The notes beneath the pieces are model-generated. The model was not told the DNA's origin and searched no databases. It worked only from the letters and a program-made list of their open reading frames with translations. A stretch of 61,125 nucleotides of DNA, the filler included, from Basidioascus undulatus (Eukaryota), in assembly GCA_000826855.1 (NCBI GenBank). It is 5 parts of 5 records of this genome, joined end to end, with 100 filler letters (N's around TTAATTAATTAA, not from the genome) between each part and the next. Parts side by side here need not be neighbours in the genome. Positions count along the whole stretch, not along the records: positions 1 to 12,166 come from JTLS01000940.1; 4 more parts are not named here. One strand, written 5' to 3'. Numbering within the stretch: position 1 is the first letter of the stretch; each line of letters starts with the position of its first letter. The position numbers and the translations under genes are program-made. Positions 2,911 through 50,747 of this stretch are shown piece by piece.

Positions 2911-3834
2911 TTACCGTGCTTCCCCCGCTGTCCGCAGGAACGGCGTAAGCGGTCGCCGTGTCCCCGGGCATTCGTCGTCCCCCCACACCCACTCCCCTGC
3001 CAACAACTTTCTCTGCTGTGTGCCTTGCATTACATGCAGACGTTCATCCATACTCTTGAACTTTTTAACCGATAGCCTCATATGACGCGCGGCTTCTTCC
3101 ACCGCAGCAAGCTTCAGCTTCGCCCATGCTACCGCCTCCTGAGCCGTCGCCTTGGGGTCCATCCTGCAGCACGCCTCCGACAACCACGCCATAGGGCCTA
3201 CAAACCGCGGATGTTTGCCCTCCAAGCACGCATCAATACGCTCGTCGTCGCTGGACCCATCAACGCTCATGCCGGTCATGAGCTCGAACATGGTCACACC
3301 AAGAGCGTACATCTCCGATTTGGGCGTGTAGGGACATCGTGTGCGCCAGAGCTCCGGGGCCGCCCAGCCGGGGTTCCCCCCCACATCCATCTGCCACAGG
3401 CGTCGGGGGCTCGTGCCGCCGGGCGTGAGAATCCCCCCCCGGTCGAAGTTGATCAGGACGAGCGAGCGTGAGTCCTCCTCAACATGATGTTGTACGACTT
3501 GAGGTCGCCGTATGTGACACCGCGGGTGTGGATGTGCGCGATGACTTCGCAGATCGCGACGACCCATTCGCAGCGCTGCTTGACGCCCTTCGGGCCTTGC
3601 GTGGACTTGAGCGTGTCGAAGATGGATATATCGTAGCGCTGCATGACGAATCCCTGCGGTAGTGGGCGGAGAACTCGGACGAGATGGGGATGAGGCGGGA
3701 TTGCGGTGAGAACTGAGTATTCGTGCTTGGCCCGCCAGCCGGTCTTAAAGACCTCCTGGCCGTGAAACCGCAGCTTGTGTAGAGAAGAGAGGAAGGGGAC
3801 TTGAGAACGAAGACGTCGTCAGAGGGACGGTCAT
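2911..3834 (-). pseudogene. Divergent protein kinase-like gene, frameshifted
   Basis: EVFKTG...HEYSVL...HPHLVRV...HIHTRGVTYGDLKSYNIML in one frame. It continues in another frame as LVLINFD...GNPGWAAPEL...YTPKSEMYALGVTMFELMTG. A second frameshift lies near 3800-3830. Confidence 0.7.
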
Positions 3835-5077: not shown

Positions 5078-6255
5078 TCACAAGATGACGCATTTCCTCC
5101 GCGTCGATCCTCTCCTTCTCCACCGCTCCGCCCCGAGCGCGCTTCCGCTCGCGACGACCCTCCTTGCGGCCTCCTCGAACGCCTCCTCGACATTCACGCG
5201 CATCTTTGCGCTCGTCTCGAAGAAGGGGACGCCGTCCCACACTGAACGTCCGGCGGGTTGTGATTGGAGGGCGGGGGAGGAGGAGGAGGCGGAGCGGGCA
5301 GAGAGCGGGATGGAGGAGGGGTTGAAGGGGGACGGGAAGGCGCGCTCGAAGATCAGGTCGGACTTGTTCCCTGCTAGGACCATCGGTAGCTGGGCGACGG
5401 GAACAGCCCAGTCAGGTTCCGAGGCAGGACGTGGGGATGGGTAGTAGGCGGGGCGCACGGGTTTGGATCGATCATACTCCTTTATCCGAGCGATGTCTTC
5501 CATGATGGGACCAAGATCGCGGAAGGTAGAGAGGTTGTTGAGCGCAAAGACGAGGACGAAGCCGTGCGCATGTCGGATATGCGACTCGCGTAGGGAGACC
5601 ATTTGCTCGACTCTGAAACCATCGTAACCACCGTCAAGAGAGCGTCAGCTAGGGTGTTGGGGAACAGGAGGGTCGGGGGCGGCCCGACGCACCCTGCCGT
5701 ATCGGTGATCTCTAACCGGAATCGGTCCGAGTCGATGGTCCGCTCTGCGGTGTACGCATCCTCGACAGTCGGATCACTACACAGCTCTCACCCAGTCCCG
5801 TCAGTTTGCTCATTCATGGCATGAGGAGCGCAGGGATTCAGTGTTGGGATGAGAGTAGATGGACGCACTAGCTCTCGAAGTATGCGCCCGTTACAAACCG
5901 CACAGTCTGTCGCGATGGGGAAATCCGAAGAGTGATGAGCGTTCCCGGGTCCGACGACTCAGTTCACGATCCCAAAGGGTGCAGTACGGAGAGCGAGACC
6001 CAAGAAAAAGAAGAGAGTGCAACCGCGACATCGCAATGCAAGCCGCTGACGCCTCCTCCTTCTTCCTTGCAAAATCATCTCCCAAATCTCTCTCTGATCA
6101 TGATGAACCGCAGGCAGCTTGACCACTCACCATACACGACTTCCCCACTCCTCCCGCTTTCCTCCGCACAAGCCCCGCGATCAGCCGGGCCAGGACATGA
6201 AGGAATAGCCGGAGGACGCACCTCCGAGCACGCAGAGCCTGATCGTGCGCAACAT
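5078..6255 (-). CDS. RSR1: Ras-family small GTPase, Rap/Rsr1-like, multi-exon with a 26-nt P-loop exon at 6131-6156
   Basis: Spliced: MLRTIRLCVLG/AGGVGKSCM/TVRFVTGAYFESY/DPTVED...EITDTAG/VEQMVSLRE...LAGNKSDL...FFETSAK...KCVIL*. G1-G5 boxes and a CaaX end are present. Confidence 0.88.
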
Positions 6256-8468
6256 CGCGGGGTTGGGCGTACGGCGGTCTACCGCGCAGAGATTCGAGGA
6301 GAAGGAGGTGATGAAGGTGAGGAGGAGAGCGGCGCAGGGGCGAAGGGGCCGAGGAAGACAGTCGTGGAAGTTGAATTGGGAGTGTGCGTGCGTGCCTGTG
6401 CGCGAGAAGAGCCCGCGACGGTCGGCGAGTGTAATTCAGAGCCCCGGACGCGCGCACGTGCGAATTGCTGAAAGCGCAAAGAAAGGGACACTGTCTGGAA
6501 ATCAGACTGCATCTGGGAAGACGTGCAGAAATGCACAGAACATGTAGATGCTGCGCTTTTCAAGCATATCGATATGAGGGAACGCTGGACAGTTAGTGGG
6601 TGTCTGCCCCACAATAGGAGTCCCATAATAGGGTCCTTTCGGTACCTGGCTCAATATGCATGCGCCATTTTGCGCGACGGAGACTTGTTCTTGCCTTGTT
6701 CAGTGCTGTTCTCCTGTGGGAAGGGCACGGAAGTTTGCCTCTTTCATAGGGCCATGTGTTCATGGATCCGGTATGGAGAGTTGTTACAGATCGGCATGAC
6801 CCTCTTGCTCTCACCCGGCCGGCAACACGCAGAAAGACGTAGACGTGCAGTGTATTTCAGACCAGTGAAAACGGTCAGGAACCTCCACACCAAGGGCACT
6901 TTCCTATCCTGTCCGCAGGCCTCGTCCACTCCCGTCCAATATGGCCGCATTGAAGAGCCTCCGCCCAATCTCCAATTGCAGCGTGAAGGCATAAAGCCCG
7001 GAGTGTGCTTTGTCAGTAACAACTGTACCGATCCGATGGGTCGTGAGATCTAATTCTAGACTGATCCACCAGAAAAGCTTGGATGAGTGGAGATCTTGGG
7101 AGACCGAACAGCACAGGAGCATTGCGAGACGTGTAAAGGCCAGCGAGAAGCGCTAGGATGCACTCACGAGCAGTGCGTATAAATGTATTGATGATCATTG
7201 TAGGTTTAAGCATACTCTGAGAAGACGACTAAGAAGCTTGATGCGCATGAGGTCCGCCTTCCTGACGGAGAGCTTGCGGGAACCTCGGGCGACGTTGGCC
7301 GACGTCGCCCTCCGTGCACACAGACACGACACTATCGTCTTTCTAACCGCTGTCAATCAAATTCACTCAGGCTTTGGATCTTCTTGACCTCTGGTACTTC
7401 AAGATAATTCTAGTGAAAGGCTGGGGAATGCCATGCTGGCCACACCAGGGCGGGCAACACATATGCGGACTGTGTTGCGACATTCGGAAAAGAGGAAGAT
7501 TCTGTGATACATACGAAAATTAAACAAGCAATTCCGATGCAGGATACGACCCTCTAGCTGCACAATTTGCCCAGTGCTGTCTCACTCCTCAGCAGCCGGC
7601 GACGACAGTTGTCCTCGCGCAGAGTGCTGCATACTGCAACCCTATTTATATTCAGCAAAGGACTCGGATCTCACCAATGTCTTCAATGAAACATTCTGTT
7701 CCTCGCTGCACTGCGTAACCATCGGCAGGGGCTCCCATTCACGCGCTGAACATCGTGCACATACACGTAAGTTACACATACGTGCACTCGAGCAGCGTCT
7801 CACCCCTAAACGTACGGTCCCTCACCCGCTCTTTTACCACACCCTACTATTATATATCTCACAGATACACGCCGTACTCACCCACCCGTATCTCGCGTCC
7901 CGCCGCCAGCCTTCTCAAACTGCGCACACACCCAGGCCGACCTCGATTGAATACCGCATCGGACAGGTGATGTAACTGAGATACTTAGAGTAAAATTCCA
8001 GATACATACTCAAGTGACGAGGAAGTCGGCCGGGGGGAAGATTGTTGCCAGTTGGGTGTTGGGAGTGTGCTTCACAAGGCGCAGGCTACAATGCAGAAGA
8101 GGTGCAGTAAGCCACTCCGACACTGAGTGATGTTTCGCTCTCACCTTGAGCAGAAGCGCAATAAATTGAAAATAGGGGGCGGGGGGGGGGAGGCTTTTAA
8201 TCCGGGACGCGTTCAGGTTTCGCTGGCAGTAAAACTCCGCAAGTTTACTGTCTGGGTGATGATAGGGTGTGGTGAAAGTGGGCATTGGGAAAAGGAACAC
8301 AACATTTGGTGGGCAAACCTGTCAATATTCGACAACCCAATTTGCCCACTGAATGCTGAAGCTAAAAATGCATGATCATCTCTGTCGGGCTTCCTGCCGA
8401 GCTATTTGAAACGTGAAAGAAAAATCGAATTTTGATTGCCGTCCTCATTAATCTGATGGACAGCCGAT

Positions 8469-8540
8469 TACCAAAGGTTGCGCGTTCGAGTCGCGTACCG
8501 GTCGGGCCGGTTGGCGCAATGGCAGCGCGTTGGTCTTCGG
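8469..8540 (+). tRNA. Circularly permuted tRNA-Arg(UCG): 3' half (positions 38-73) at 8469-8504, then 5' half (positions 1-37) at 8505-8540
   Basis: 3' half: T ACCAA AGGTT GCGCG TTCGAGT CGCGT ACCGGTC G. 5' half: GGCCGGT TG GCGC AATGGCA GCGC G TTGGT CT TCG G. All four stems pair when the halves are swapped. Confidence 0.88.
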
Positions 8541-8545
8541 TTTTT
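8541..8545 (+). terminator. Putative RNA polymerase III terminator (T5) directly after tRNA position 37
   Basis: TTTTT immediately follows ...CTTCGG. Confidence 0.6.
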
Positions 8546-8849
8546 GCTCCTTAATTTTTCCCCCACTTAAAGTGGGATAGTAGTTTTCGTTAGTAGTTAT
8601 CGGAGTGTACAGCTCAGAGATACATTATTGGTCCCCTGGTGAAGAAGCTGTTCAGCCTGGGGAATTCATTAGAAAGACTTGTCGTTTGTGGTCGGCCCGT
8701 TCCACGTTCAATTCGAACCTAGTCACTCAATGGTGACCCTCTTTGGAAGCTCTGTGACGACTGCATGTATCTCTCGACTTGTCTATAGCTCGAGGACACC
8801 CATATTCTACATCGTTCCCCCTATCCATATAATACCGCATAAGCAAAGT

Positions 8850-9806
8850 CCAGATGCTCTTCATGAAGACTTCCCCGCGGAGGACGCCGACCTGGTGTTG
8901 GTATCGTCCCATGGTATAGCTTTCAAGGTAAGTACCGAGCCCCGTTGCTCGCTGAAGCACGAATCGAGAGTGATTCCGGTGGAATAAGGTCCATCGCGAC
9001 TACCTCAGAGCGGCCTCGTCCGTCTTCAACGACATGTTTTCCATGCCGTCCCCAGAGGCTCCTTCCCCCTCGACAATGTCGCTGGACGCACCCTCTCTCG
9101 AGCTCACGGAGACGTCCGACGTCCTAGCCTGCGTCCTTCGCTTCATCTATCAAGGCCTTATCGATTTACCAGGTCTTCTCGAGCCCTTCTCTCTCACTCC
9201 TGCGGGGTGGGCGGACCTCGCCAGCGCAGTTGATGTCTCCCGCGCCGGGGAGAACGTGTCCCTGTACCTTTTCGGCCTCCACGCCGAGCAGAGGGACGAG
9301 CCGGGGGTAGTTCACCGAGTATTCGCCTGCGCCGCCCTCGCAGGATGCACACGCTCGCCCGCATCGCTTTGCGCCGGCCGCCCAAGCATGGGGGCATCCT
9401 CCTGGTCGACCGGTTCTGAGAGATCTGGCGTGACGCGCTGCCCACGTCGTACCTCCTCGGGCTGCATCAATTTCACACCCTGCACGCGGCATTCTTCGGC
9501 GATCTCCACGCGGACGACTCGACCTGCGTCTGAACCGCAGTGGACTCCGAGCATGTCCTGGCGGTCTGGACACGCGTCAAGGGGCGGCTCGCGCTGGTCC
9601 TCGAGCCTGTGGGGCTGTCGTTCAGCCGGGAGGAAAAGGAGGCGGGGAAGCCGCAGTTGGAGATTGAGGGCCAGCTTCCGGAGGCGCGTAACTTGGGGCT
9701 TCGCCAGCTGCTGTTGGTGTCACGAGGGAGTTTTGGCGGCGGTGGCAGGAACTTCTGTCGGAGGTGCAGGTCAAATGAAGAGCTCATTGAAGCTTGTGGG
9801 ATGTAG
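8850..9806 (+). pseudogene. BTB/POZ-domain protein, probably degraded in its 3' part; start uncertain
   Basis: DADLVLVSSHGIAFK/(intron 8928-8988)/VHRDYLRAASSVFNDMFSMP...LELTETSDVLACVLRFIY is a typical fungal BTB domain. The downstream coding-like sequence shifts frame and has an in-frame TGA near 9531. Confidence 0.65.
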
Positions 9807-38487: not shown

Positions 38488-41375
<2,888 letters not shown>

Positions 41376-48999: not shown

Positions 49000-50747
49000 T
49001 GCCCCCGCCCCCACCGCGCCATACGCGGCTATGCACGGTCTGAAACCGCCTTCGTACCTCACTGTGCGTCCCCCCGTTCCCTCTGCGCCCTCCTTGCCTT
49101 CTCCCGTCCTTCGCCTTCTTTCCTCTTCTTCGCTATGCTCACCTATTGCGAGCGGAACAGGTGAACAACATCCCCTACATGCGCCTGGACGACCTCGGCA
49201 AGGGCGGCTCGTCGAAAGTGTACCGCGTCCTGTCGGCCTCGAACGAGCTCTTCGCGATCAAGAAGGTCCGCCTCGACAAGTGCGACGCCGAGACGGTCAC
49301 GGGCTACTTGAACGAGATCAGCCTCCTCCAGCGCCTGAGGGGGAACGACCGCATTATTAGGCTGTGGGACTGGGAGAGGCAGGGGAATAGGCATTTGTAT
49401 ATGGTGCGTTTGCGTGTGCTGGCAGGGAGGAAAGAGGGGATGGTGGGAGCTGATGTGTGTTGGTGTTGGTGTGGGTGTGGGTGGTGCGTGGGGGAACAGC
49501 GATTGGAGTGCGGGGAGATCGACTTTGCGCGGTTGTTGGCGGAGCAGCAGGGCAAGCGGCTCAACATGAACTTTGTGGGGCTGTACTGGGAGCAGGTGCG
49601 TCCTTCCCCTTCTTCTGCCCTTTTCTTTTTACAGCGACTCTCATGCACCGTAATAACTCCACCTGAATCGTCCGCCCGCAGATGCTCCGCGCCGTGCACG
49701 CGATCCACGAAGAAGCGATCGTCCACTCGGACCTCAAGCCCGCCAACTTTGTGCTCGTCAAGGGCTCGCTCAAGCTCATCGACTTTGGGATCGCAAAGGC
49801 GATCCCGAACGATACGACGAATATCCATCGCGAGAGCCAGGTGCGCTTGCCAGGGAGAGAGGGAGAGAGAGAGATGGAGTCGGCTGACGGTTGGGTGCGG
49901 GAATGGGGATTGGGATGGATGGACAGGTCGGCACGATCAATTATATGAGCCCGGAGGCGATCACGAATCCTTCTTCGGCGCTGAGCGGGAAGCGGGGGCT
50001 GAAGGTCTGTTGCGCTTTTCCCATATCTTAAAGAGCAAGGGACAAGAAACTGACGCTCGCTCCGCTCGCCGCAGTTCGGCCGCCCCTCGGACGTCTGGTC
50101 CCTCGGCTGCATCCTCTACCAGATGATCTACTCGCACCCGCCCTTCTACCACTACCAGAACCTGCACAAGAAGCTGTCCGTCATCCCCGACCCGTCCGTG
50201 CCCATCGACTTCCCCGAGTTCTCCGTCCCCGTCACCGCCCCCCCGCGCGGCGCGCCCCCCACCGCGGGCGGGCCGCTCGAGCCCGTGCGCCACGAGGACC
50301 TCAAGGTCCGCGTCGGCGAGGACGTGCTCCGCACCATGCGCAGCTGTCTGCAGCGCGATGCGAAGCGGCGCATGACGATTCCGGAGCTGTTGGATGAGGA
50401 CCCATTCTTGCAGCCGTGGAAGAAGGAGCGAGGTGCGTTTGCGGAGAGGACGGGAGAGGAGAACGTGGGCAGGGACTGATGTGGGGTAGGGGGGGGAGGA
50501 TCAGGCATGTCGGCCGACGCGCTTGGGATCACGCAGGGCCAGATGCACATGCTTGTCAAGCAGGTCATGCAGTTTGGCAAGGCCCAGGCGAGCGCGTCGG
50601 GCTCGATCAGCAAGGAGCTGATCCACTCTGTCACGCAGGTGCGTTGCCCCCTCCCCTCCGTTCCCCTTCCTTTGCTCCGTCTGACGTCTCGTGCACGCTC
50701 CCGCTCCGCAGAGCCTCTGGAAAGAGCTCGGCAACGCCCAGTCATGA
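49000..50747 (+). CDS. MPS1: MPS1/TTK spindle-checkpoint kinase, kinase domain and C-terminus (5' truncated)
   Basis: [90 protein letters not shown]. Confidence 0.95.

Follow-up and report, generated by a model that had tools for sequence, protein, structure and literature searches.

Permuted tRNA genes, where the tRNA's 3' half lies upstream of the 5' half, are described in the literature that we searched only from red and green algae, from chlorarachniophyte nucleomorphs and from one archaeon; in every case described there some bases have to be trimmed from between the mature ends. A total of 34 permuted genes are listed in Table 1 of a 2014 review (PMC3978253), where the intervening sequence measures 5-74 bp in algae. 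The corresponding range given by Chan et al. 2011 (PMC3218864) is 5-85 nt. The intervening sequences of Thermofilum pendens are 7 and 1 bp long with CCA encoded, and removal of the 1-nt link was called an open question in the same review (PMC3978253). Algal type II genes, which are permuted at position 37/38, are known from Cyanidioschyzon merolae, Ostreococcus, Micromonas and the Bigelowiella nucleomorph (Soma 2007 and Maruyama 2010, as cited in PMC3978253). The only recent additions found were from Auxenochlorella (PMC12633428) and from the nucleomorph of the chlorarachniophyte Amorphochlora (PMC4494063). No report of a permuted tRNA gene in a fungus was found in the literature searched, the reach of which stopped short of many subscription papers.

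A second described system with a comparable order of arms is the bacterial tRNA mimic YrlA, the tRNA-like part of Ro60/Rsr Y RNAs, which is encoded beside an rsr (Ro60, TROVE) gene in bacteria or phages. In vivo the closed seven-pair acceptor hairpin of M. smegmatis YrlA is cleaved at the RNase P site, M1 RNA cleaves it in vitro, and the cut RNA then acquires CCA. Cleavage was not seen by the same authors for YrlA stems of six pairs, and RNase P cutting was linked by them to seven pairs (Chen et al., PMC4201824). In the crystal structure of S. Typhimurium YrlA a closed 15-nt acceptor module folds as the L-shape of a tRNA, and YrlA RNAs are mostly thought to remain closed (bioRxiv 10.1101/312249). 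An engineered closed permuted tRNA has been reported to mimic a nicked tRNA (PMC10159003). Metazoan Y RNAs are described as being without a YrlA-type tRNA-like module (Chen et al. 2014, PMC4201824).

Here we describe a locus in Basidioascus undulatus, located within a stretch of 61,125 bases which was analyzed in full and is referred to below as the window. From its sequence we read the locus, with a probability of about one half, as a working, single-copy, circularly permuted nuclear tRNA-Arg(UCG) gene of a basidiomycete-like fungus.

Layout of the permuted unit

The junction ACCGGTC-G-GGCCGGT, which an earlier note on this DNA had singled out as lacking any spacer between the two mature tRNA ends, was found to have the sequence described there. 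A single G separates its two heptamers, which form seven pairs out of seven, G-U in one case. A near-palindrome of this kind is common by itself, and it is non-random here because of the tRNA-arm context on both sides (Table 1). The complete tRNA-Arg(UCG) is contained in a 72-base unit (8469-8540) in which positions 38-73 are placed directly ahead of positions 1-37. The halves, each 36 nt long, are permuted at 37/38, where tRNA introns canonically lie. As in type II permuted genes, both halves lie on one strand with the 3' half upstream, and together they make one complete cloverleaf. With respect to the spacer, 0 nt separate G73 (8504) from G1 (8505), as compared with the 1-74 or 85 nt published for genes of this type. 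CCA is not encoded at the locus, and a zero-length link without encoded CCA is outside the published range. When numbered manually, all invariant and tertiary positions were found to be kept (U8, A14, A15:U48, G18G19, A21, G26, U33, G37, G46, G53-C61, T54T55C56 and A58).

Table 1. Features of the candidate permuted tRNA-Arg(UCG) locus, in order of position in the window
Feature	Position	Strand	Detail	Basis
Leader strand AGCCGA	8462-8467	+	Pairs with UCGGUU, 8537-8542	Minimum-energy folds
3' half, positions 38-73	8469-8504	+		Sequence; ARAGORN cloverleaf of swapped halves
U38	8469	+		Sequence
Anticodon stem, 3' strand	8470-8474	+		Sequence
Variable loop	8475-8479	+	AGGTT, 5 nt	Sequence
T arm	8480-8496	+	Loop TTCGAGT	Sequence
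Flagged junction	8497-8511	+	Acceptor 3' strand, G73 and acceptor 5' strand, spacerless	Sequence, folds
Acceptor stem, 3' strand	8497-8503	+	ACCGGTC; then discriminator G73 at 8504	
5' half, positions 1-37	8505-8540	+		Sequence; ARAGORN on swapped halves
Acceptor stem, 5' strand	8505-8511	+	GGCCGGT; U8-G9 next	
D arm	8514-8528	+	Loop AATGGCA; then G26	
Anticodon stem, 5' strand	8530-8534	+		Sequence
C32 U33 U34 C35 G36 G37	8535-8540	+	CTTCGG; anticodon UCG 8537-8539, G37 8540	
T5 run, likely RNA polymerase III terminator	8541-8545	+	Begins at the base after position 37	
Second T5 run, possible back-up terminator	8555-8559	+	10 nt further	Sequence

Detection, controls and assembly check

In its native order the 61,125-base window yielded no tRNA when analyzed with ARAGORN, and none when introns were allowed or thresholds lowered. 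After 8505-8540 had been joined to 8469-8504, ARAGORN reported a tRNA-Arg(tcg) of 72 nt whose four stems were fully paired. The whole window was then covered by a swap scan, in which 60+60 nt were exchanged around every one of 61,005 junction positions, the products being searched with ARAGORN on both strands. Matches were obtained at 8 adjacent positions among the 61,005, all of them at this locus. The same 8 matches and no others were recovered using arms of 110 nt, a length which would also catch permuted genes bearing a spacer. From ten dinucleotide-shuffled versions of the window 2 single matches were obtained in total, both with mismatched stems and abnormal loops and neither at the junction. 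When the whole window was searched against Rfam in gathering mode no family reached threshold. In E-value mode one notable match was observed, to YrlA at 8461-8546 (40.6 bits, E = 1.5e-5), and the E-value of this match was 1.1e-7 when a region of 421 bases was searched alone.

Over 8200-8800 the assembly was compared with contigs built from the DNA runs X1 (2025) and X2 (2014). Neither differences nor indels were observed, at word depths of 47 and 18, an agreement which is not fully independent since X1 or X2 could be the source of the assembly. In a third DNA run (X3) next to none of the words were present. There is no sign that bases were lost at the junction during assembly; the contigs of the two runs hold none of the extra bases whose loss the earlier note had considered. 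Contigs of X1 and X2 presumably break at repeats of at least 31 bases. If this rule holds, the unbroken course of both contigs through the locus means that there is no second copy of either half and no identical parent gene. Elsewhere in the window no other copies or remnants of either half were found beyond chance words of 9-13 nt. The contigs of both runs which cover the locus stop at about 10,743 in the window, which suggests a repeat or an allelic branch point at that position.

Predicted fold of the uncut RNA

The acceptor stem had been described in the earlier note as closed by a single G, a geometry which proved untenable. A helix is not closable by a one-base loop, and the stem of the uncut RNA is therefore limited to 6 bp, with C72-G73-G1 (CGG) forming a triloop in the predicted folds. 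Pairing of G1 with C72 becomes possible only after the cut. The permuted cloverleaf has a predicted energy of -33.2 kcal/mol, which is 3.4 kcal/mol above the predicted minimum of -36.6. Real tRNAs often have a cloverleaf above the predicted minimum energy.

Leader, trailer and promoter elements

In the minimum-energy folds the leader forms a helix of 6 bp with anticodon positions 34-37 and the first two U of the trailer, set off from the anticodon stem by a 2x2 internal loop. Of 19,989 random 10-mers from the window, 84 folded as well as the observed leader when the anticodon stem was kept fixed, so that the leader is better than 99.6% of them (p ~0.004, a post hoc figure). Runs of T5 or longer number 41 on the plus strand of the 61,125 bases, a frequency of about 7e-4 per position which is likewise post hoc. 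Both figures therefore overstate the case, yet the two features still favor a purpose-built transcription unit over a random insertion, and no target-site duplication is visible around the locus. Directly behind the second T5 run there is a hairpin, CCCAC-TTAAA-GTGGG (8563-8577), followed by 1.9 copies of a 13-nt unit (8578-8602) which is the sole tandem repeat near the locus.

The strict bulge-helix-bulge (BHB) motif for the 37/38 junction is not formed. Opposite positions -3 to -6, positions 32-35 give C:G, U:C, U:C and C:G, which amounts to two pairs of a possible four, and the stable leader helix is displaced by 2 nt from the strict register. Application of the archaeal strict BHB cleavage rule to the stable helix was rejected, as it would yield an anticodon loop of 8 nt. 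C32 and G8466, a base situated 3 nt ahead of the 3' cut, could form a pair with a 3-nt bulge, and we take this to be the place of the eukaryotic anticodon-intron pair (the -3 position). The eukaryotic tRNA-splicing endonuclease is described as using a ruler mechanism which measures from the tRNA body, so that a strict local motif is unnecessary (PMC4090602). The locus is therefore compatible with eukaryotic splicing, though no motif in it predicts splicing.

In the permuted order the B box is upstream of the A box, and for this reason the usual internal promoter would be unable to work normally. Inspection of the sequence upstream of the locus revealed no clear TATA-like element, only A/T-rich patches. 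A scan for bacterial-type promoters and terminators returned no sites; its models are bacterial and not relevant to a eukaryote.

Host context and search for relatives

The window contains short open frames only, with protein-kinase, Ras and thiamine-enzyme domains present in pieces. The locus itself is intergenic, with a frame that ends near 7972 on one side and a BTB-like frame that starts near 9034 on the other. All named protein matches from it were to Basidiomycota, and the gaps between tblastn segments, corresponding to introns, measured 53-80 nt. The host thus looks like an intron-rich, basidiomycete-like fungus. With respect to codon usage, 9 of 79 Arg codons within 1,030 aligned codons were CGA. 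Protein-kinase genes in pieces were located at 49143-50401 (+) and 2914-3818 (-), the former being Mps1/TTK spindle-checkpoint-like with matches in Hermanssonia and Vanrija. A divergent Ras-family GTPase exon at 5081-5644 (-) had one database relative at E <=1e-5, in Wallemia, with 35% identity. A pyruvate-decarboxylase-like gene at 38506-41282 (+) comprised at least 5 coding segments with measurable gaps of 53-62 nt, and the best matches of its exon were in Microbotryomycetes (43-51% identity). Conventional tRNA genes detectable with ARAGORN were absent from the 61-kb window.

Two metagenome scans, one for the junction allowing a spacer of 0-30 nt and one for the stretch from the D arm to the anticodon, gave no matches. 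A distant-mode search of a phage collection was also without a match. Scanning a collection of genome contigs for the same spacing of T loop and D arm gave one match, in a Hyphomicrobiales MAG. This was treated as a chance match and not as a relative, as it lay in an apparent coding sequence and had neither acceptor pairing nor an Rfam match.

Comparison with described systems

The locus has in common with the algal type II genes a 3' half upstream on the same strand, the 37/38 junction, the lack of an encoded CCA, a T stretch after the 5' half and a leader which pairs with the trailer side. In contrast to these genes, as far as they are described in the sources cited above, its link is 0 rather than 5-74 nt, the strict BHB is not formed, there is no clear TATA-like element, the host is basidiomycete-like and not an alga, and the locus is known here from DNA alone. 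The permuted tRNA-Tyr(GTA) of T. pendens resembles it in that extremely few bases link the 3' and 5' ends (PMC3218864, PMC3978253). That gene differs in being archaeal, in having a 59/60 junction and an extra intron, and in carrying CCA before the 1-nt link, so that 4 nt lie between N73 and N1. The earlier note had taken it as established that permuted precursors carry an intervening loop which is cut out by RNase P and tRNase Z. Of this, the intervening sequence is indeed published, while its removal by the two enzymes is presented as proposed and not proven (PMC3978253, PMC3218864).

The order of T arm, closed acceptor hairpin and D arm is shared with YrlA (RF02553), as demonstrated by the Rfam alignment. 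The lengths of these modules are 17, 15 and 15 nt, respectively, and are the same as those of S. Typhimurium YrlA, the acceptor module of which spans nt 50-64 with 6 bp (bioRxiv 10.1101/312249). As in YrlA, the ends of the RNA make a stem at the anticodon side. M. smegmatis YrlA is the closest member, and it provides a precedent for a single RNase P cut of a closed hairpin followed by CCA addition (PMC4201824). Unlike YrlA, the locus scored below the 69-bit gathering cut-off and has no Ro60/Rsr-binding stem, the alignment having deletions of approximately 11 of its model positions at the 5' side and approximately 15 at the 3' side. It also differs in its eukaryotic host, with no rsr gene in view, and in keeping the full anticodon stem and both halves of the anticodon loop. 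No TROVE/Ro60 domain was detected in the 189 reading frames of at least 115 aa in the window, which is a weak test since introns or small exons could hide the domain.

Discussion

The reading of the locus as a working gene draws on the complete cloverleaf with its tertiary positions kept, on anticodon-loop halves which retain C32, U33 and G37, and on a unit which is unique in the window and was not approached in quality by any shuffle. It is further favored by the T5 run placed exactly after position 37, by the intron-like leader helix with its C32:G8466 option, and by a latent G1-C72 pair which would be needless in a permanently closed mimic. The apparent lack of an identical parent copy, as judged from the unbroken contigs, and the use of CGA codons are in keeping with it. 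Precedents are available in the RNase P cut and CCA addition of M. smegmatis YrlA, in the ruler-type endonuclease and in the L-shaped closed 15-nt module, as these are described in the sources cited. Against this reading stand the lack of a strict BHB, the placing of the B box before the A box, the lack of a clear TATA-like element and a cloverleaf above the predicted minimum energy. No relative was found in the metagenome and phage scans, and fungal permuted tRNA genes are absent from the searched literature. The closed stem has 6 pairs as against the seven-pair stems to which RNase P cutting was linked by Chen et al. (PMC4201824), and the flank probabilities are post hoc.

A more specific form of this reading, which we advance tentatively from the sequence, is that the basidiomycete tRNA-Arg(UCG) may be encoded only as a spacerless permuted gene. 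A closed 72-nt circle or a hairpin-capped precursor would then be opened by a single cut where the specificities of RNase P and tRNase Z coincide. The cut of RNase P falls 5' of position 1 and that of tRNase Z falls 3' of position 73, both enzymes leaving a 5'-phosphate and a 3'-OH. At this locus both sites fall on a single phosphodiester bond, and one cut by either enzyme would therefore make both ends. The earlier note had argued that one cut must create both ends and that this implies unusual processing. The logic of the single cut is sound if the gene is used, but the processing need not be exotic given that both sites are one bond.

In the pathway which we propose, RNA polymerase III would start upstream and stop at the first T5 run. 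The RNA would fold as a tRNA body with its acceptor hairpin closed and with the leader lying on the anticodon like the 3' part of a tRNA intron. Splicing endonuclease, its sites set by distance from the tRNA body, would release the leader ahead of U38 and the U tail behind G37, and tRNA ligase would join G37 to U38 to give the 72-nt circle. One hydrolytic cut at G73|G1 by RNase P or tRNase Z would then produce 5'-P-G1 and G73-3'-OH, upon which G1 would pair with C72 and the CCA-adding enzyme would complete the tRNA. Opening of the acceptor before ligation, as an alternative order, would lead to the same product.

Three other explanations were weighed against the working gene. The locus may be a dead relic, that is, a non-functional permuted copy such as a reverse-transcribed, CCA-less circularized tRNA which had been cut in the anticodon loop, or a once-working gene that is now unused. 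Such a relic would explain a lone locus to which nothing related was found in the metagenome, phage and contig searches, which has no strict BHB and no working order of A and B boxes, and which belongs to a class of genes not described in fungi in the literature searched. We nevertheless consider it unlikely, as all stems and tertiary-pair positions are intact and as neither the T5 run exactly after position 37 nor the leader helix, at the post hoc frequencies given above, would be expected at a random insertion site. The unbroken contigs also argue against an identical parent copy, and neither a target-site duplication nor a remnant of outer halves is visible. With respect to the two origins offered in the earlier note, reverse transcription of a circularized tRNA fits poorly with the non-random flanks and the apparent lack of a second copy. 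Head-to-tail duplication with loss of the outer halves finds no backing in the window, where no remnant of an outer half is visible. Chance resemblance, or an assembly error which deleted a spacer, is highly improbable. Apart from the frequency of 7-bp near-palindromes nothing speaks for it, and it is opposed by the swap-scan controls, by the Rfam E-value and by the identical contigs of the two DNA runs, of which one or the other may have supplied the assembly.

The locus could instead specify a closed tRNA look-alike, an RNA polymerase III transcript of approximately 84 nt (8462-8545) combining a tRNA elbow with an acceptor end that is capped, a U tail and a stem formed by its own 5' and 3' ends, built like the YrlA module or like a mimic of nicked tRNA. 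The Rfam match to YrlA, in the region and in the window alike, speaks for this, together with module sizes identical to those of the crystallized S. Typhimurium RNA and a non-random end-to-end stem. The view that most YrlA RNAs stay closed (bioRxiv 10.1101/312249) and the resemblance of an engineered closed permuted tRNA to nicked tRNA (PMC10159003) are also in its favor. The YrlA score is, however, under the cut-off, with the Ro60-binding part of the model deleted in the alignment, and the tRNA-like part of that model would match any spacerless permuted tRNA. Such a look-alike would have no need of a 5-bp anticodon stem, of C32, U33, an Arg anticodon and G37, or of a G1-C72 pair which depends on a cut. 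The weak test for a TROVE/Ro60 domain was negative for the frames covered, and the one prokaryotic match to the spacing of T loop and D arm was a chance one inside a coding region. A closed look-alike is in our judgment distinctly improbable, more so than a relic.

The significance of the locus hinges on its expression. Should the RNA stay closed, a eukaryote would have a counterpart of YrlA, the tRNA mimic of bacteria. Should the spacerless gene be a working one, fungi would have their first permuted tRNA gene, which would extend the phenomenon to opisthokonts, and it would be the first in any organism without intervening bases to remove. It would also mean that standard tRNA finders miss real fungal genes, ARAGORN having been blank here in the native order. 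A working gene would in addition offer a clean natural substrate for the handling by RNase P and tRNase Z of a closed, almost loopless acceptor stem, which is the question raised by the 1-nt link of Thermofilum.
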